Part shown: positions 5,203 to 61,265 of the stretch, one piece after another | Layout of the letters: every line of letters begins with the position of its first letter | How positions within the stretch are numbered: the first letter of the stretch is position 1 | Assembly (NCBI RefSeq): GCF_001447785.1 | Contig: NW_015174925.1 | Location: forward strand, 112,229-176,228 | Reading direction: 5' to 3' | Source of the DNA: Gekko japonicus | Lineage: Eukaryota | DNA length: 64,000 bases | Translations under genes and position numbers: made by a program | Notes under the pieces: generated by a model | Seen by the model: only the letters and a program-made list of their open reading frames with translations | Databases searched by the model: none | What the model was told of the DNA's origin: nothing

Positions 5203-5394
5203 TTCTTCTGCCACTGTCCCTTTGAAACGTAGAATGCTATTCTCAGGGAAATTGCCTCTCCTTCCTTCTGTTCCATCCTCTCCAACAACACACATCTCCT
5301 TGCAGACAACAAGAGGGACAACACACTGTCTCCATCTTGACACCATGATGCAGATGGCCCTCTCACCATCTGCATCCATCCTTAGTAAGTTAGA

Positions 5395-6057
5395 GGGAGC
5401 GGTGGCGCAGGTGGTTAAACGCCTGCATGTAACATCTACAAACAGCTGCTACAGCTGTTCAACTCCCGCTGCGGCTAGAGTGAGCACCTGGCCCCACTCC
5501 CGCTAACCCAGCGGTTTGAAAGCACGATGTAACATCAAAAATGTGTGAGTAGATCAATGGGTACCTACCTTAGATGGTAGGGGGCACCCTCCCCCCATCG
5601 AGGGGGTCTGCGGAGTGGCGACGATGAGCGGTGAGGCGGCGAGCGGCAGACGGAGAGCGACGGAAAAATGGCGACTGAGGCGCAACATCTACGAGGGTCC
5701 GGACGTTGGTGGAAGGCGGAGCCAGGAAGACGCCGGGAGCGTGAAAGGCACAGGCGCGGCGGGACCTCAATGAACGGAGCTGGAACCGCACCGGAAGCGC
5801 GCCGAGCGCCTGAGAGGCCCGCTGAAACCGCCACCGGAAAGATCACAGATAGCAGGAGAAGAGGCCAGAAAGAAGCCGAGCCGACGAGCCGTTCCAGAAG
5901 GAAGAAGATCGAATAATGTCCCTCCACTGGGTGCTGTTAGGACAGTCCCCACACCAGTATATATGTGGCCATAGGTAAGGGATAACGGTTAACTGTAAGC
6001 CGCTCAGAGACCCCCTGGGGGGTTCGAGCGGGGTAGCAAGTTGAAAGAAGAAAGAAG
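5395..6057 (+). mobile_element. Composite SINE-like element: Sauria/tRNA head, CpG-rich body, L2-like tail
   Basis: A box TGGCGCAGGTGG, B box GTTCAACTC, Sauria-type CCCAGCGGTTTGAAAGCA...GAGTAGAT..ATGGGTACC, 3' TGTAAGCCGCTCAGAG...GAGCGGG plus (GAAA/GAA) tail. No TTTT terminator inside. Confidence 0.7.
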
Positions 6058-7308
6058 ATCCCTGTTCCTAAGCTCTCTTATCTAGAATGTAGTTCCAAAA
6101 TAAAGAGTCTTCAAACGGAAGAGTGGCTCTGTGTAGCCTTGTAAGTTAGCTTTGGTACCTGGAACAAAGACGCCGTTGCGTGTGTGCTAAAAGCACTCTG
6201 CTAAATTAGGCAGTGGGGACTGGACTAACTATACCAGCTAACCCAATGGGGGGATCAACACAGTTGCATTCCAGCTGCACTTCTATCAGCAAAGGCTGTC
6301 CATTTGAGCAACCAAGGTGGTTTTAGTCTCCAAACCAGGACAGAAGCTCTTCTAAAGTGGGTCCAGATAATCCCCCTCACTCAAGAATGCCAAATATGTA
6401 TACCATTTTCCATTTGTATACTAGGTCTTTATAAGTTATTTTAAAAATCTTTAGTGAGCAACGGGGTAGGGATACAGTGTGCAAATGACAACTTTTTAAG
6501 CCATGGACAAAACAATAAATAAGACTTTTTGTTAAATAATAAGATAGGCCTTCTGAATAAAATACCTTTTACTGTAGCCATTACTGGGTTGATTTTTTGT
6601 TCGTTTGTTTTCCATTTTTGCAAGCTATATTGCGTATTCTTTGCATAGAAGGTAGAGAGATTGACATAATGTTTTCCTTGTTCACTTTCACTTATATTGC
6701 CATAGACCTTACTATAGCCTGCTTGGTCACCCAGTATTATTATCGCTATATTGCATGTGGGAAGGCTGAGAAAAAAATGTCTTGCCTCCAGGTCACCTAC
6801 TGAGTTCATGGCATAGGTGAACTTTGAACTAAGGAGCATTGAATCACAGTGGCTAATTGTGCCACCCCAGCTCTTAAAAATTTCCTTGCCATTCCAAAAA
6901 CTTGCTTGCCACTGTGCCATATGCACAGAATTTAATAATTTCTTCCCGCTAAAAATCAGCACCAGACTTGTCAATAAAGCGTTCCGCCACGTTTTCAGCT
7001 TGGGTCCTGCTTCTAAGCTTATCCTGTCTTCTGCTCCCCCACTTCCTCCCATATCCTGCAAAACCATCTTTTACAATAGAGCCAAGCAGAGAGCCTAATC
7101 CACAGCTCTTTGTATCAAGCATTAGGCTGCATGTGTGCAACTGCATGCAAGGGTCTCTGCAAGCTGCTCTGCTGTGGAATAGATGGTTGGTACTGGAAGG
7201 ACAAGAAGTAGAAGTTTAGGTGTCTGGTCCATGCTCAAGAAGGTGGATTGGGGCACCCATGTTCTGGGCCGCTGTCAGAAAGAGGTCAAAAGCAACCCAT
7301 ACCTAAGT

Positions 7309-31601: not shown

Positions 31602-33311
31602 TGCAGGGGTTTCCTCCTTGGAACACCTCTGATTTTTTTTGTCCCAGTCACCTCTCACCTCTGCCTCTAATACTGCAATCCTGTGCAGAGTGGCTCCAGT
31701 TTAAGCTCATTGAACAGCCTTGACCTAAAGCAAATTTGCATAGGACCGCAGCGCTGTCAGCCTCCTGCCTCCAAATGTGCCCTTGGCAATGGATTTCAGT
31801 TGTACATCTAGAAGGGGCCATGCTCATTTGGATCTGCATGGGACTAGAAATTCCAGCCTGACAGCCTTTTATTTCCTTTCCCCTCACTTGCTCAGAGTCC
31901 CATCATCTCCATTGCTAGCTCTCGTCAGCGCCATTTTTAAAGCCTTAACTGAAAGTGACAGCTAGCAGGGAAATAACGGGAGAATCAACTTCCTTCTGTT
32001 TGCATTACCCTCCTGAATTCTCTCAAGGAGCAAAATACCTCCAGGGACACAGCTAAATGGTTTTTCAACTGGGAAAATAAATAGGGGGGCAAACTCAACT
32101 CAAGAGAAAGCAAATAGATCCAACCCTTCTCTTGATAGGCCTAACTGGAGTTCCTTCCTTTCCCGCAAAAGCAGAACAGGTTGTAAATGCAACAATTCAT
32201 ATTTATTTATTTATTTCTTATATTTATACCCTGCCCATCCTGCGAGCAGGCTCAGGGCGGCTAACAAAGCGGTACAATGTACCTAATTGGCATACCCATA
32301 AAAGTCTTAAAACTATATAAAACCACATAAAACATACTCATTCAAAACATAAATTAACAATTAACAGTAAAGTGCATACAGTACTGAAGATTAGATGGCG
32401 TGCTTCCAGATCTCAATCCGCGTTATTCATCTAATCATCATCCCTCGTGCCGATGAGCTTAGCGATATATCTGGGCCAGGCCTAGGATCCAAACATTCAC
32501 TAGGATCATTGGTGGTAACAGCAGTGGCGGCTCCTATTGAAAGGCCTGGCGGAAGAGCTCCGTCTTACAGGCCCTGCAGAATTGTAGAAGGTCCCACAGG
32601 GCCCTGATCTCCTCTGGGAGCTCGTTCCACCAGTAAGGAGCCGCCACAGAAAAGGCTCTGGTCCTGGTACTGGTGAGCCTTGCATCCTTGGGGCCCGGAA
32701 TAGTCAATTGATGTTGGGCCCCAGGCCGTAGTGCTCTCTGGGGTATATATGGGGAAAGGCGGTCCCTCAGGTAGGTCGGTCCCTGGTCATGTAGGGCTTT
32801 AAAGGTAAGCACCAGCACCTTGAAATGAATCCGGTATGCTATAGGCAGCCAGTGCAGTAACCTAAGCGCTGGCTGGATGTGCTCCCACCGTGGGAGGTCC
32901 ATCAACAGCCTGGCCGCGGTGCTTTGCACTAGCTGCAGCTTCTGAATTTGAGACAAGGGCAGCCCCATGTAGAGAGCATTGCAGTAGTCAAGTCGCGAGG
33001 TGACCATCGCATGGATCACCATCGCCAGGTCATGCCGGTCAAGGAAGGGAACCAACTACCGAACCAGACGAAGATGATAAAAGGCCGATTTAGCAGTGGC
33101 CGCTACCTGGGGCTCCATTGTCAGGGAGGCATCCAAAAAAAAGATCTGGAATCCGACTGGCCACCCAACATCAGATAGAGCTGGGTGTCATCAGCGTACT
33201 GATGGCAACCCAACCCATACCTCTGAGCCACCTGGGCGAGGGGGCACATAAAGATATTAAACAACATCGGGGACAGTACTGCGCCCTGGGGTACGCCACA
33301 CTCAAGAGGGC

Positions 33312-34452
33312 CGCAGGATTTAAACGACCTCATGACCTAATAGACAAAGGGGCAATGCGAGACAAACTTTATTTTGATCAGAAAATAGGGAAACAGATAC
33401 CCTGGTTTCAATATTTACAGTTAAAAAGCCTCATCGATCATCTCACTGACTTAGGCACATTCCGGAGAGAACTGACGAGCTTGGAGAAAATCATTAAACT
33501 GTATCCCATGCATCCAAAAGGCACGCTATCAAAAATATATAATGCGATCATTTTGGAAGAAGGCCATCCGAAGCTCAAATATCAACTTCAATGGGATGAA
33601 GATCTGTCAGTTTGTTGGAACGATGCAGATTGGGGTAGTGTGTGGTCCTCCCCAGCCAATCAATCTAACATCTTCAATATTCGGCTACAATTTTTTAAAC
33701 TTTACTCCAGATGGTATTTTACCCCGCACAAATTACGGAAAATAAACCGAAATAATGATCCGCGCTGTTGGAAGGGGTGTGGGAAGATTGGTACCTGCCT
33801 ACATTGTTGGTGGGAATGTCCTAAACTCAGCAAATTCTGGGAAGAGATCCGAAAAGTGATCACGAAAATAACCTCACTTAATCTCAATTTCAAACCTGAA
33901 GTATTTCTACTAAACCACTGGAATTCCGACATAGATGCAAGAAATAAGGAAATACTTGCTTTACTCCTTGCAACAGCACGCCTGACTATAGCTTCGTGTT
34001 GGAAATCTCCGTCACCTCCAACGTAAACTGCCTGGTATGAAAAAGTGTGGGAGCAATTCGTGATGGCAAAGATCACTGATAAGATACATAGAGCCCAAAC
34101 CTCACAGTCTTCCTATTCCAAATTTGAATCTACCTGGTTCCCAATTTTTTCTTATCTTACTACATGTGATATTACCTACTAACATTCATTTTCATAAGTG
34201 GGTCTTGATGTGAACATTATTATTATGCTCGATGGGTGAAGTCCTCATTCCTTTATTTATACAGTCTAATGACCTGGAGTATTATAGAGGATCTCTCTGT
34301 GGGAATGTTGAGTTATTTCTGATGTAGTCTGTTTATGTCACTGGAGTGCATCTGTTTGTTTATGTATTTTTACGGTTAGTAACTATTTGGCAAAAGTTAT
34401 TTTGAAAAATAATAATAAAAATATATTATTTTTAAAAACATACGTAAAAAAA
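33312..34452 (+). mobile_element. 5'-truncated L1-clade LINE (ORF2 C-terminus with CCHC zinc knuckle, 3' UTR, poly-A)
   Basis: WFQYLQL...SKIY...RWYFTP...CWKGCGKIGTCLHCWWECPKLSKFW; A-tail; TSD AAGAGGGC (33304-33311, 34453-34460). Removing the insert restores the L2 reading GEQQSGRRPLECGVPQG. Confidence 0.92.
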
Positions 34453-34805
34453 AAGAGGGCGTCTCCCGGACTGCTGTTCCCCAAGCACCACCCTTTGTTC
34501 CCGACCTTGGAGAAACGAGCANNNNNNNNNNNNNNNNNNNNNNNNNNNNNNNNNNNNNNNNNNNNNNNNNNNNNNNNNNNNNNNNNNNNNNNNNNNNNNN
34601 NNNNNNNNNNNNNNNNNNNNNNNNNNNNNNNNNNNNNNNNNNNNNNNNNNNNNNNNNNNNNNNNNNNNNNNNNNNNNNNNNNNNNNNNNNNNNNNNNNNN
34701 NNNNNNNNNNNNNNNNNNNNNNNNNNNNNNNNNNNNNNNNNNNNNNNNNNNNNNNNNNNNNNNNNNNNNNNNNNNNNNNNNNNNNNNNNNNNNNNNNNNN
34801 NNNNN

Positions 34806-35132
34806 GCCTTGGCTCCGTCCAATAGGCTCTGCCGCGACGGGAGATGATGTCATCCACACCTTCTGCTGCTCGCGCCGGCCGCTTTCTGTTGGAACGCCGC
34901 AGGCCACCAGAGATCGCTCCACTGGCTCTCGATGTTCCGCCGCGCCACCTCGTCTCTGCCGCCAGGATCCGCCGTCACTGCCGCCGTCGCCACCATTGTT
35001 GTTGTTCCTTCGCTGCTGCCGCCACCGCACACCACACTCCTCGGACGAGGGGGGTGCCCCTACCCTACTAAGGGTAGGTTCCCATTCATCTACTCGCCCT
35101 TTAACGGGCTTTTGAACCGCTGGGTGGGCGGG
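34806..35132 (-). mobile_element. Second copy of the composite Sauria-head/CpG-body element (5'-truncated; 3' part lost in gap 34522-34805)
   Basis: Reverse complement CCCAGCGGTTCAAAAGC...GAGTAGATGAATGGGAACCTACCCTTAGTAGGGTAGGGGCACCC aligns with 5507-5590. Confidence 0.75.
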
Positions 35133-36840
35133 ATCTGTCAACTTCCTCAAGACTGAGCAGGTCAAAATGATCCAAAACCGACACAGACGTGCAAGGGGCC
35201 TCGAGTTCACTCACTGTTTCAAGCGTGGCGGGGAGGTCACAGCGAAGTGTCAAGACTTTATCCACAAAATAGCTCGCAAAGACCTCACAGCCAATCTCCA
35301 ATTCCCTCTCTTTTGGGCTGCCCTGAGGCAGAACTGTTATAGATCGACTTGTTCTAAATAATTGGACTAGGCGTGAGCTAGCGGACGCAATCTCCTCTGC
35401 AAAGAACGTCCTCTTTGCAGCCTTGACTGCCATCTCATAGGATCTCATAAACGTCCTATAGGATGCTCTTGTGGCTCCGTCGTGAACTCGTCGCCACCGT
35501 CTCTCCAACCGTCTTAACTCCCGCTTCACACTCCTCAGCTCCTGAGTATACCATGGAGCGAGTTTGGCACTGGAGCACAGAGGGCGCCGGGGAGCGATCT
35601 CGTCGATGGCAGTAGAGAGTCGGCTACACCAATCCTCAACCAACTCATCTAATGAGCCGCCGGGGGGCATTGGATCCTGCAGAACCCTCTGAAGCCGCAA
35701 TGGGTCCATTAGGCTATGCGGGCAAGCTAAAATGCGCTCGCCGCCTAAACAGGGTCAGGGTGGAACATTCAGACAGGTCTTCAGGGCATGGTGGTCCGAC
35801 CATGGTACTGCCAAGGCAGTAATCCGGTCCACTGTAACCCCAGCCGCAAAGACCAAATCGAGCGTGTGACCGGCCCGGTGAGTGGGAGTCGTTATAAATT
35901 GGGAGAGTCCCAGTGCTGCCATGGCCGACACCAGGTCCGCAGCCTGTTTGGAGGTCGTGTCATCAGCATGGGCATTGAAGTCACCCAAGACTATTAGCCT
36001 AGGGTGCTCCAGCGCCCAGCCTGATACGGCCTCCAACAGGGACGGTAAGCTATTGGCTGGCATGTTAGGCGGTCGGTACACTAGCCAAATCGCCACACTC
36101 TCCCCGGCTTCCCATACTAGGCCGACACACTCCATGCCCGAGATCACGACTTCAGCATGGAGAGTTACGACCAAGCTGCAAGGGATGCAAGCCACTGGTG
36201 GTTTGCTTCTGCTAACTGCCCCTCTTATAATGTTTCCACCTCAAACCATTTTGCAGTTTTATCAACCATCTCTGAGGCCTCCCAGAATAATACTCTGCTT
36301 GTAGATCAATGTAGAGACTCAGCCCCCTTTATTACAGGAAGATGCAGAAAATGCCACATTTGTTGACAACACACCAAGAGATCTTTCTTTCCTAACTGCT
36401 AAAACAGTGGGAAGTATTTTTGAACAGCCTCATAAGGTTTGTCTGAACATCCAACAATTTAATAGATATACCCCTTTTTGGAATGATAAATTCCATGCTG
36501 AGCAGCACCTGAGAAATTTGTTTTCCCACTGAATTAGGTCTTCTGAGTTGAAATCAGTTGAGCTCCTTAATCGTTCTTGCCAGGCTCATAGAGTATCAGC
36601 CGTCCCCTTATTATTAATCCAATGGAAAGACTTCCTAAATTCAAAGGGAATTTTCCCAACACGGGTTTTTATGAATGCAAAACAATCTCCTCTTTTTAAC
36701 TGGAAACTCCATGCCACTTCAATGTTACAACAGAAGACAAGCACCTGAAGGGAGGACCAGCTAGCATTTCACACCATGAGCTAATTGGTCAGGATGACGC
36801 TCCTGTTTGCCTGGAGACCAATGCTGAAAACAACATAGTG

Positions 36841-42149: not shown

Positions 42150-44411
42150 TTAGTTCCATGAAGGGTGACGAGATACGGAAATGCTCGGACCCCTTCTAAT
42201 CTCCATCCCGTCCCAAGGAATGACAGTGTGCAGGCCCAGTTAATTCCCTTCTCTTCTACTGTGATGCTGTGTAATGCCAGGTCAGTAAGAAATAAGACCA
42301 CAATTCTCCAGGAGACTATCTTGGAGAGATGCCTTGACTTGGCATGCTTGACTGAGACCTGGGTGGGTGAGGTAGTTCCCCCAGGATACTCAATCCTCCA
42401 TCAACACCTGAGGGATTGGGGGGGGGCTCAGAGTGGTAATATTCACCCAGGCCTGTTTTCCCTTCCAGAGGATCCCTGCACCAAACATCACTGCCCTTGA
42501 ATGTGTTGGCCTGGCTTGGGGTGTCATGGAGAGGTTGGGAGCCCTGCTGGTGTACCAGTCACCCAGCTCACCAGCAGACTCCCTTCTGAGGCTATCAGAG
42601 GCAATAGCTGAATGGACACTACATTTCCCTGGACTGTTGATCTTGGGGGACTTTAACGACCATGCAGAGACTTACTTACGTGGTGCAGCCTCAGACTTCA
42701 TGGCTGCTATGACAACATTCGGACTCTCCCAGGTTGTATCAACCCCCACACGTTAAACAGGACGTATGCTAGATTTTATCTTTTGCACAAGGCTTGATCT
42801 AAATAGTGCAATTGGTTGTGAACCACTGCCATGGTCAGGCCACATCCTTGTAAGGGTTGGTTTGGGGATGGCCATTCCCCCCTACAGGGGCAATGAATGC
42901 TTGCTCGCGGAGACTAACAGACCCTGATGGTTTCCAAAACGCTGTCAGATTTATCTGGACCTGCCAGAAGTTCCCTCAATGAGCTGACTGAGATTTGGAA
43001 CAGAGGTCTTCAGGAAGCTATCAATCGGATTGATCCCCTGCACCCTCATGTCTCTGAGGCTCCTTGGTATAATGAGAGTCTAAGAGATTTTAAGACGTTC
43101 AGATGGCTAGAGCAGAATTGGCAATAAACACAGGATGGAGCTGTGAGAACACACTACAGAGCCCAACTGAAGGCCTATGAGGTGTCAGTGAAAGTGGCGA
43201 AAAGATTATTTTGTCGCCTCCATTGCATCCACTAGCTGGCAACCAGCTCAGTTATTCAGATTGGTTTAACAACTGACCACCTCTTTGGCTGCTGAATTTG
43301 ATAACAGTAGTGGGATGGGGGCTCCGCTTGCAGTCTGGTTCTTTTTTGGACTCCTTCAGCCTTGCGGATCTTGACAGGATCCTGACAGCTGTGAAGCCAA
43401 CTACCTGCTCCTTGGATCCTTGTCCCTCGTGGCTGGTAAAATCATGCCACGAAGTGGTAAGTGGCCCTTTGAGACAGATTATTAATTTGTCTCTCTCACA
43501 GTACTGTTTCCCCAGCCCTCTTAAGGAAGCAATTGTTAGACCTTTGCTAAAGAAACCCTCCTTAAATAAAAAGGAGCTGGCCAATTACCGCCCAATGTCT
43601 AATCTGCCTTTTCTGAGGAAGGTAACTGAGTGAGCAGTAGCCGAACAGCTCCAGGTTTTACTGGATGAGACATCTGCCCTGGGCCCTTTTCAATCAGGCT
43701 TCAGGCCTGGCTTTGGGACTGAAACAGCACTGGTTGACGATCTCCGTTTACATCTGGATAAAGGCATGCCAGCCCTTTTGATTCTTCTGGATCTATCAGC
43801 AGCCTTTGATACAGCTGACCATTTGGGGGTAAGGGCCTCCCTGTGGGTAAGGGGCACTGCCTTTAGTTGGTTCTCCTTGTTTCTCCAGGGATGCTCTAAG
43901 AGGGTCACTACTGGGGAGGAGATGTCTTCCCAATGAGACCTGAACTGTGGGGTCGCACAGGGTTCTATCCTTTCTCTGATGTTATTTAACATATACGAGA
44001 TTGTCAGGAGGTTTGGAGTTGGGTGCCACCAATATGCTAATGACACTCAGTTCTTTCTCCTGCTGCATAAGTAGCTGGCAGCAGGACTCTTGGCACTATT
44101 CCAGTGCCTAGATGCAGTAGTCCAATGATTAAGAGGAAGCAGGCTGAAGTTGAATCCATCCAAGATGGAGGTCATGTGGCTGGGAAAGACTGAAATGCTA
44201 GCTAGAGAGTCACTCCCAAGACTCAGACTTAAATAAAGCTTTATGTGTGTGTGTGTAGACTCTGTAAAGAGCCTCGCAGTAACTTTATGTGTGTGTGTGT
44301 GTGTGTGTAGACTCTGTAAAGAGCCTCGCAGTGTGGTTGGGCTCTGCGCTAACACTAGATAGTAGCATGGTCAGCATTTTTTCACCTATGCCAGGCCCAC
44401 CAGCTGGCTCC

Positions 44412-44442
<31 letters not shown>

Positions 44443-45340
44443 TACCTTCAATTTCTAGACCGTTCATCCCCGAAGGGCTCTGAGTGGTTTACATAGTAGT
44501 ACAATTTAATTATCTTACTAGGGCCACAAACAATGGGGGGGAAAGTGATTACCTAACAGGCACCCCGCGGTAGGGTTTCTTGATCGTTGTTTTTCCTGCG
44601 GAGGTTCTTTCCAAGTCCTAGGTGGCAGCGTCTGGGTCTTATTTGTCTGGGTCGGACCTTGCCACATTGATCCATGCAATAGTAACCTTCAGACAGGACT
44701 ACCACAATTCACTCTATGTAGGGCTACCCATGAAAATGCTTCGGAAACTTCAGGTGGTCCAGAATACAGCTGCCAGGTTGCTGACTGGAACATCATGGTC
44801 AGCTCATATTACTCCAGTTCTGCGGCAGCTGCACTAGCTACCAATTAGTCTCTGAATCCATTTCAAGGTGTTGATGTTAACTTTTAAAGCCCTTAACGGT
44901 TTGGGACCCTCATACCTATGGGACCACTTCTCCCATTACAACCTCCCATACTCCGTTCAGAAATCTTCTATGGGCCTCTTGCAGGTGCCTGGCCCCAGAA
45001 TGGCTTGGTTAGCTGCCACTAGGGGAAGGGCTTTCTCAGTTGTGTCCCCTACCATGTGGAATGCACTCTCGGATTACACCTGTGCCCTGACACACTTGCT
45101 TAGTTCCTGCAAGGCATGGAAAGCTGAATTATTTAGGTTGGCCTTTGGAGGCCATGTTTTATGTTTGAGATGTTTTAATGGTGGTATGGTGATAGCCACA
45201 TATTTTAATATTTGAATGTTAATATGTTATATTTGTTATTTATTTTAGGGGGGGTTGGTTGTTTTTACCTTATTGGTTTTAATGTTGTAAGTCGCCACAA
45301 GACCCTTTGGGTGAGTGGCAACTTTAAAAATCTAATAATT
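42150..45340 (+). mobile_element. Decayed L2-clade LINE (APE, RT, tail)
   Basis: CNARSVRNK...LTETW; LILGDFNDH; TTCSLDPCPSWLVK...NYRPMSNLPFL; LIHAIVTFRQDY...LRQLH. Multiple stops and frameshifts. Confidence 0.9.
44418..44637 (-). mobile_element. 3' fragment of the composite SINE-like family (third copy) inserted into L2
   Basis: Reverse complement shares GGGTGC(C)TGTTAGG, TGTGGCC.TAG.TAAG and TGTAA.CC.CTCAGAG with 5928-6010; (TAAA)n tail; TSD CTTATTT. Confidence 0.6.
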
Positions 45341-58744: not shown

Positions 58745-59040
58745 TAAAGTTTCGCAGGGAATGTAAGGCAGAGATGTTCTGCCAGGCCTTTGGCTGAGAC
58801 CAGTGATGGTTCTTTACATCTGCCTGGCACCCCCCCTCCTCCCCCATGACTGAATGCTAGATATGCCATCTCATCCTTAAAATGTCTTCAAATACTTAAA
58901 TGGTAGAATGTTTTTAATATTGAATTTTTATGGTTTTAATCAGTTTTATAATGTGTTGAATTATTTTGTTGTAAACCGCTCTGAGCCCCATGCAAGCAGG
59001 GAAGGGCAGTCAAGAAATCTAATGAAATAAATAAACAAAT
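58745..59040 (+). mobile_element. L2 3' end fragment
   Basis: ...KAEMFCQAFG-like ORF end, TGTAAACCGCTCTGAGCC...GGGCAG and (AAAT)n tail. Confidence 0.75.
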
Positions 59041-59256: not shown

Positions 59257-60181
<925 letters not shown>

Positions 60182-60977
60182 TGATTACTTAAACAATTTT
60201 ATGCATACACGGACACAAAATTCATGTTATTTTTCCTTAGAGTTATTATCTCTGCTCAGTATTTCTCTGTTTAAGTGATTTGATGGTTTCACAGGCCTGC
60301 AGAAAATGCAAACCTCTGCCATGGAAAGGACTGCTAAACCAACTGACCAGCCCCAACTTCTAAAGGGTTAACTAGCAAAACAGAATATACAGATCTCATG
60401 GGTTGTCAAAGCAATCATATGACCACTACCCACAACATAAATATGAAAACGGTTTTTTTAAGTTCCCAGACCCTTTTCAGACCTAATTAAATCATGTTTT
60501 CCAATAAACACAATACTGTTTGACTGTACAGTACCACACACATAAATAAGAAAAAGAACAAACAATGCTGAATAAATTACACAGTTATTTACCTGCACAT
60601 ATTTGATTATGAATGTTGAATCCCATCAATTCTTCTGAATATGATAACTTTGATTAGATCTTCATCATCTGCAGTAACCAGAAATTCTCAAGAGAGTGAT
60701 GCTGTTGATGCTGTCTTGGGTTCAACAGCTGATTGGAGAGATATCCTAAAAGTTCAGAAGACAGTTACACTCCTGAAACTATCAAAAATCAACACAAAAA
60801 TGAAATTTCCAAGCTTCTTTCTAAAGGAAAAAGTTGTTGGTTTAACTGTGCACGGCACTAATAGCAGCATCAGATTTACAACAAAGACTACTGCTTCCCT
60901 GCTTTCATATTCCCATAACACATGCCCTTTCTAGATTCAAAAATCATTCATAAATTCAAAAGCTAGTTGAATCCAAC

Positions 60978-61265
60978 TCTAGGAGGCGGTGCTCATCTGT
61001 TTCCAAGCCGAAGAGCCAGAGCTGTCCAAAGATGTTTCTGTGGCCATGAGGCTGGCATGATTAAATGATGAGGCACATAGAACGCTGTTACCTTCCCACC
61101 GAAGTGGTACCTATTTATCTACTTGCAATTTCTTGCTTTCAAACTGCTAGGTTGACAAGAGATGGGAGCCCACTCCATCACACGGCACTAGGGTCTCGAA
61201 CTGCTGAACTACCGACCTTCCAGTCTGCAGCTCAGCATCTTAACCTCTGAGCCACCACAGCCCCT
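60978..61265 (-). mobile_element. Sauria SINE, 3'-truncated
   Basis: GTTACCTTCCCACCGAAGTGGTACCTATTTATCTACTTGC...TTTCAAACTGCTAGG and antisense head CTGAGCCACCACAGCCCC. Confidence 0.88.

Follow-up and report, generated by a model that had tools for sequence, protein, structure and literature searches.

The 64-kb window, by which we mean the whole stretch of DNA analysed here, comes from a genome of 2.49 Gb and carries at positions 5395-6057 a unit that a sequence-only reading had put forward as a composite SINE: a Sauria/tRNA head that had switched to an L2 partner and gained a new central module. Does such an element exist as a family, and if so, how did its parts come together? Our analysis, which rests on comparison and folding of its copies, suggests with a probability of about 85% that the unit is a long non-coding SINE whose first 190 bases are of Sauria type and whose end is an L2-type stem-loop. 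This element is likely transcribed by Pol III and, given a tail like that of the L2 LINE, likely copied by the L2 reverse transcriptase.

Limits and parts of the window copy

The unit is a full copy of the long SINE (subfamily A, plus strand), in a family whose members range from approximately 616 to 730 nt. Its proposed limits were upheld by paralogues of the host repeat, which bracket the insert. This host (5290-5394 and 6058-6250) is an older interspersed repeat, with 40/40 scored matches at 74-85%, and comparison with its paralogues revealed that roughly 10 host bases were replaced without target duplication; as the paralogues have about 10 nt at the element's site, the event amounts to an insert of 5395-6057 together with a small target deletion. 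An empty allele was also considered, since a joint lacking the element appears in contigs from one DNA run. The flank is however a repeat with 80% paralogues bearing a similar 10-nt filler, so that such a joint is no evidence of an empty allele.

Much of the anatomy first proposed was borne out (Table 1). The window copy has no internal TTTT, and its body is as CpG-dense and purine-rich as claimed (CpG observed/expected ratio of 1.07 versus 0.28 for the window; 65% purines). Of the two Pol III boxes assigned to the head, the A box stands, whilst the B box is mutated in this copy and intact in most aligned copies. The tail is indeed of L2 type, with the amendment that the family ends in (AAAT)n, of which the window copy carries a GAAA/GAA variant. 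Across three raw RNA runs, the unit was covered at low depth on both strands by reads of mostly less than 95% identity, as from other copies, with no common start or end.

Table 1 Features of the long SINE and its relatives in the window.
Feature	Position	Strand	Remarks
Full-length long SINE, subfamily A	5395..6057	+	Sits in older repeat, ~10 target bases lost
tRNA-like head	5395..5475	+	A box 5403-5414; B box 5457-5466, mutated in window copy
Structured domain common with Sauria-type SINE	5476..5581	+	
Variable body, CpG-rich, T-poor	5582..5934	+	
Conserved 3' block	5929..5993	+	
L2-type terminal stem-loop and simple-repeat tail	5994..6057	+	
5'-truncated subfamily B copy	34806..35133	-	Consensus 710 nt; best matches 94-97%; inside L2-like ORF2
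5'-truncated 3' end, subfamily C	44418..44633	-	Inside L2-like ORF2, imperfect 13-14-nt duplication
Sauria-type SINE copy, short relative sharing head	60945..61264	-	Ends approximate, tail missing

Two further pieces of the window had been described as homologous to the unit. Their homology was upheld, both by alignment to the unit (scores of 123 for the 34806 piece and 77 for the 44418 piece, against shuffle maxima of 49 and 35 over 300 shuffles) and by the family profile (E 4e-38 and 5e-31, respectively), but the three window pieces prove to be members of three different subfamilies. Both lie inside L2-like ORF2 sequence, as claimed, with an endonuclease Pfam match at 35758-36240 and an RVT_1 match at 43634-43933. 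The 34806 piece, formerly read as head and body, has lost the tRNA head, beginning at unit position ~104; it abuts an N gap (34522-34805) in which its 3' part lies. The target site duplication (TSD) said to flank the 44418 piece exists as a repeat, although an imperfect one.

Between this N gap and the rest of an L2-like element (32200-36240) we also observed a LINE-like 3' fragment, rich in T and A and ending in poly(A) (~33330-34450, plus strand); together with the SINE piece, this gives the L2-like element two nested inserts. Elsewhere, directly after an L2-type tail at ~58970-59040, lies an intronless ARF-family copy (59654-60184, plus strand; Pfam Arf, E 2e-22). It is frameshifted early, has a GC-rich leader, resembles ARF6 and is likely a processed pseudogene. 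The commonest repeat of the window is a SINE of 260-290 nt that by eye fits the supplementary Squam3B consensus of PMC7983390, and Squam3B-like copies fill the window; a 267-271-nt form of Squam3B is reported there for Gekkonidae.

Family size and subfamilies

By searching the genome with the unit and scoring 40 of 3,923 candidates, we obtained 43 rows, of which 33 span at least 590 nt at 81-93% identity (the unit itself, at 100%, included). The aligned copies begin at the same G run and finish in (AAAT)n. Head, body and tail co-occur as had been claimed, with 29 of 30 head-selected loci running through body and tail, many of these loci overlapping those of the unit search. In a sample of head-motif matches (90 in all: of 100 listed, the first 30 were taken without selection and 60 came from the remaining 70, those left out being mostly Sauria-like motif variants), 73 were of the long type, 7 were Sauria and 10 were other.

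Exact matches to the long-type head motif number 1,757 genome-wide, and those to a motif of the 3' block 5,342 (control, 0). As 32 of 54 copies match the latter motif exactly, about 9,000 copies are suggested. Of 30 loci selected through the 3' block, every one extends into the profile's tail region and 13 are intact at the 5' end; this frequent 5' truncation, together with the surplus of 3' block over head matches, is what one would expect target-primed reverse transcription to leave. The elements are thus interspersed, shorter than 1 kb, present in at least 100 copies, non-coding, 5'-truncated and equipped with a simple-repeat tail, as is characteristic of SINEs. In metagenomes, eight matches to the 3' motif were seen; none of them had a profile match, and they are put down to chance.

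A working set of 54 copies containing all marker motifs (616-730 nt) resolves into 40 clusters when cut at 85% identity and into 26 when cut at 78%, and its CpGs are largely kept (median CpG observed/expected ratio 0.77). For one singleton that was tested, 39 of 40 scored matches were additional copies at 86-92%, so that it stands for a family of at least 40, while subfamily B yielded 40/40 scored matches at 94-100%. Head, body, 3' block and tail are laid out in full-length B and C copies as they are in subfamily A; pairwise identities between the three are 69-79% in heads, 51-55% in bodies and 58-62% in 3' parts, and body length varies from 270 to 390 nt across the family. Module shuffling among subfamilies was considered and rejected: head, body and tail identities correlate among 42 copies (r 0.45-0.76), with three discordant pairs, two of them involving one short-body copy. 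Four copies (L131, L214, L212 and L260) end soon after the shared head domain, three of them at or just past its last hairpin; these are possibly tailless insertions.

The suggestion that several subfamilies were recently active agrees with our estimates, in that many are fairly young: mean non-CpG divergence from the consensus is 2.0% for A, 0.8% for B and 2.4% for C, calculated from 23, 20 and 17 best matches respectively and hence biased young. At a rate of 0.0013 per site per million years (PMC13295347), this corresponds very roughly to 6-18 million years, subject to the same bias. The many low-copy subfamilies of the long SINE seem to mirror the LINEs of lizards, for which many concurrent low-copy families, 17 of them L2, are reported (PMC5389967).

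A head shared with Sauria

The head is tRNA-related, with A- and B-box-like motifs, assigned by what we take to be the box consensus, conserved across subfamilies. Its predicted fold comprises two hairpins inside a closing stem, and neither ARAGORN nor Rfam called a tRNA in it. The likeness to Sauria reflects homology: subfamilies A, B and C align with a 345-nt Sauria-type SINE of the same genome over approximately 190 nt, covering the tRNA-like head and the structured domain, and not convincingly beyond. Within the structured domain, both sides of the helix 5506-5510 with 5558-5562 are changed in Sauria; this is accompanied by a variable inner hairpin and by a hairpin at 5564-5581 with compensatory changes. 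A search with a degenerate motif from the post-tRNA domain gave 11,029 exact matches (control, 0), and in 17 of the first 30 loci an (ACCTTT)n end follows at the expected distance, giving an element of ~345 nt. From its length and this end we presume the shorter SINE to be Sauria, also called Squam1, which is said to go back to Piskurek in 2006. Sauria is described in PMC13295347, PMC10702118 and PMC10058329, the first of which reports its length, its (ACCTTT)n end and its TSDs.

The long SINE therefore has the 5' region of Sauria, ~190 nt with 74% identity over the structured domain, yet is twice as long and lacks the Bov-B/Vingi-related 3' half with its (ACCTTT)n, the overall length of ~330-360 nt and the TSDs, ending instead in an L2-type tail. 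It also comprises dozens of subfamilies, whereas the sampled Sauria copies form one star-like group.

An L2-type tail

The claim of an L2-type tail was well founded. The last ~55 nt, including the stem-loop, match the ends of the genome's L2-like LINEs, as in an L2-dependent SINE, as well as the L2-derived region of Squam3B. Across 42 loci of these LINEs, which we presume from their ends to be L2, this is the only part in common: their T-rich 3' UTR is absent from the SINE, and the conserved 3' block is absent from the 3' UTRs of the sampled L2 copies. The terminal stem is changed on both sides between variants. TSDs occur at chance family-wide (at least 7 nt in 1/51 copies; control, 0.86), and in 61% of 70 copies an A immediately precedes the element. 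Rare TSDs are likewise reported for the L2-dependent Squam3 (PMC7983390), whereas Sauria SINEs bear them (PMC13295347).

An L2 with the exact tail variant of the SINE was not found among 26 matches in which a T run precedes the tail, 15 of which were SINE copies; two of the 26 have a sense-strand L2-like match further upstream. At one locus (L329), an L2-like ORF2 match of 40% identity precedes a SINE-type tail by ~580 nt and may point to the partner LINE.

Direction of the tail exchange

With two SINEs of the same head and different LINE partners in one genome, partner switching becomes directly testable. The switch from Sauria to an L2 partner envisaged by the sequence-only reading is plausible, and we see about an even chance that a Sauria-type head gained the body and the L2 tail. 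The separate head groups in an unrooted tree, together with an SP6-like stem variant, mean that the reverse direction or a common ancestor is also possible. A tentative case can be made for the reverse, in which the head of the L2-tailed lineage would be the older one, akin to the 3' end of CORE SINEs, and Sauria would have arisen when such a head acquired a Bov-B/Vingi-type 3' half. Of the 70 head domains in the unrooted tree, the 17 from Sauria fall on one side of a long branch (100/100) and neither group nests in the other, with head-domain identity reaching just 74% between the types, as opposed to 84% within the long type and 87% within Sauria. An 8-nt and an 11-nt block of the long-type helix both occur, by eye and in order, at the CORE end of SP6 in the supplement of PMC7983390, a match that could be due to chance, since the search was made with this motif already in mind; Sauria differs at both helix arms, and most CORE SINEs in the alignment of that paper are L2-tailed.

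This likeness to CORE is however limited to the two blocks at the SP6 3' end, the conserved 5' half of CORE being absent from the long SINE. Furthermore, Sauria is documented across squamates and a lacertid fragment has Sauria-type arms (both in the supplement of PMC13295347), whilst the long type has so far been seen in one genome only. That both SINEs took their head from a third element seems improbable to us. The same supplement of PMC13295347 contains a lacertid Bov-B insertion that starts with a Sauria-like 5' piece, a joint that suggests head-to-LINE template switches.

Comparison with known SINEs

The L2-derived terminal stem-loop, (TAAA)n tail and rare TSDs of the CORE SINEs Squam3, tuaMIR and Ther1 (PMC7983390) recur in the long SINE, which differs from them in its head, in lacking the CORE 5' half, in its low copy number per subfamily and in its length (620-730 nt versus 218-271 nt; PMC7983390). 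Anolis SINE 2 (Squam2) is also a lizard SINE paired with an L2 LINE (PMC3747384), but its reported length of at most 350 nt sets it apart, and its origin is given as independent of Squam1 (PMC10702118). Tail exchange between SINEs is documented in PMC5786205 (Kojima 2018), where ERE4B and WALLSI2 similarly join the 5' part of one SINE to the tail of another LINE by module exchange; in contrast to these, the long SINE has a middle of 270-390 nt that is CpG-rich, fast-diverging and helix-clamped, with no LINE source found in L2 loci.

A family of ~9,000 copies would presumably be caught, at least partly, by de novo repeat finders, and might therefore already be listed, under a name assigned automatically or for the species, in Repbase or Dfam. 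We regard this as rather unlikely: squamate SINEs, those of geckos included, are given in PMC10702118 as three families of 190-350 nt, the longest SINE consensus cited for SINEBase in 2012 is 662 nt, and our comparison with the published literature, Dfam, Repbase and SINEBase standing outside it, found no description of a long, L2-tailed, Sauria-headed SINE. The long SINE forms a real composite superfamily that is probably undescribed.

A variable body between conserved helices

In a consensus fold of 35 representatives, the head hairpins show compensatory changes and the body is closed by a near-invariant helix (5584-5589 with 5929-5934). An inner helix (~5610-5618 with 5920-5927) covaries between subfamilies, and the top MI-APC pair of 74,601 is a long-range G-C/A-T pair within it, with the qualification that the subfamilies are related and covariation counts overstate independent events. 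Cognate 5' and 3' strands pair at -14.8 kcal/mol versus -12.8 kcal/mol when swapped (28 copies), with none of 10,000 permutations as low; the cognate strand is best-ranked in just 2/28 rows. The whole body is weakly more stable than shuffled sequence (z -0.4 to -2.0). Rfam gave no match on the unit and two sub-threshold matches in 10 further loci. A ribozyme was considered by mapping HDV-like and hammerhead topologies, in the form we take them to have, onto the unit by hand; neither fitted, Rfam offered no family match, and the candidate was dropped.

TTTT is found in 0/54 copies where 10.7-12.9 would be expected, and AAAA in 52/54. Such strict avoidance points, if indirectly, to Pol III. It correspondingly disfavours another view of the body, whose composition is CpG-island-like and in which YY1-like and ETS-like motifs, as we presume them to be defined, occur in 19/54 and 22/54 copies versus 1.7 and 3.8 in shuffles, the copies not being independent. 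These features would suit a captured Pol II promoter or LINE 5' UTR, making the element a bipartite non-autonomous LINE with a tRNA head on the model of Kojima 2018, and LINE 5' parts are documented as SINE bodies (PMC5786205). The donors listed in that source are however RTE and Vingi only, and among 42 L2 loci (12 of 8 kb; RTE, Vingi, CR1 and L1 5' UTRs lay outside this sample) there was no body-only profile match, the three matches touching the body or 3' block all including the 3' block. We consider this origin quite unlikely. Peptide coding by the body, for which the 82-codon frame from an ATG in the window copy could speak, is largely refuted: the frame recurs in 6/23 subfamily A copies, the remaining 17 being shifted, stopped or without the searched motif, the longest frames of the 54 copies range from 25 to 139 codons with unrelated starts, stops are scarce in T-poor sequence anyway, and the one frame tested over the body (minus strand) had no Pfam match.

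Proposed mechanism and significance

The repeated composite build, the 5'-truncated copies that keep the 3' end, the lack of target duplications and the avoidance of TTTT are established, as are the dozens of low-copy subfamilies whose bodies differ by ~45% while the flanking helices are kept. For a long SINE of Sauria-type head and L2-type end, we propose that Pol III would read from the A and B boxes on, as far as the flank's first T run, and that L2 ORF2 would bind the terminal stem-loop and prime reverse transcription at A/T-rich targets. The body may loop out as a separately folded domain, and could in that case drift while promoter and tail stay unaffected. Numerous masters would have been active in parallel, as reported for lizard L2 families.

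A more far-reaching claim would make this an undescribed SINE superfamily near the upper SINE length limit, with dozens of masters and a hypervariable 300-nt CpG-rich cargo in a repeatedly selected long-range helix, its head being the ancestral state from which the squamate-wide Sauria arose as the L2 tail was swapped for Bov-B/Vingi. Taken as a whole, we judge this unlikely.

The origin and role of SINE bodies are an open question, and the diverged versions of this one form a natural mutagenesis series from which the helices indispensable to a SINE can be read. Gecko methylation and annotation studies could mistake ~9,000 CpG-rich inserts for CpG islands, and the young low-copy subfamilies would serve well as phylogenetic markers.
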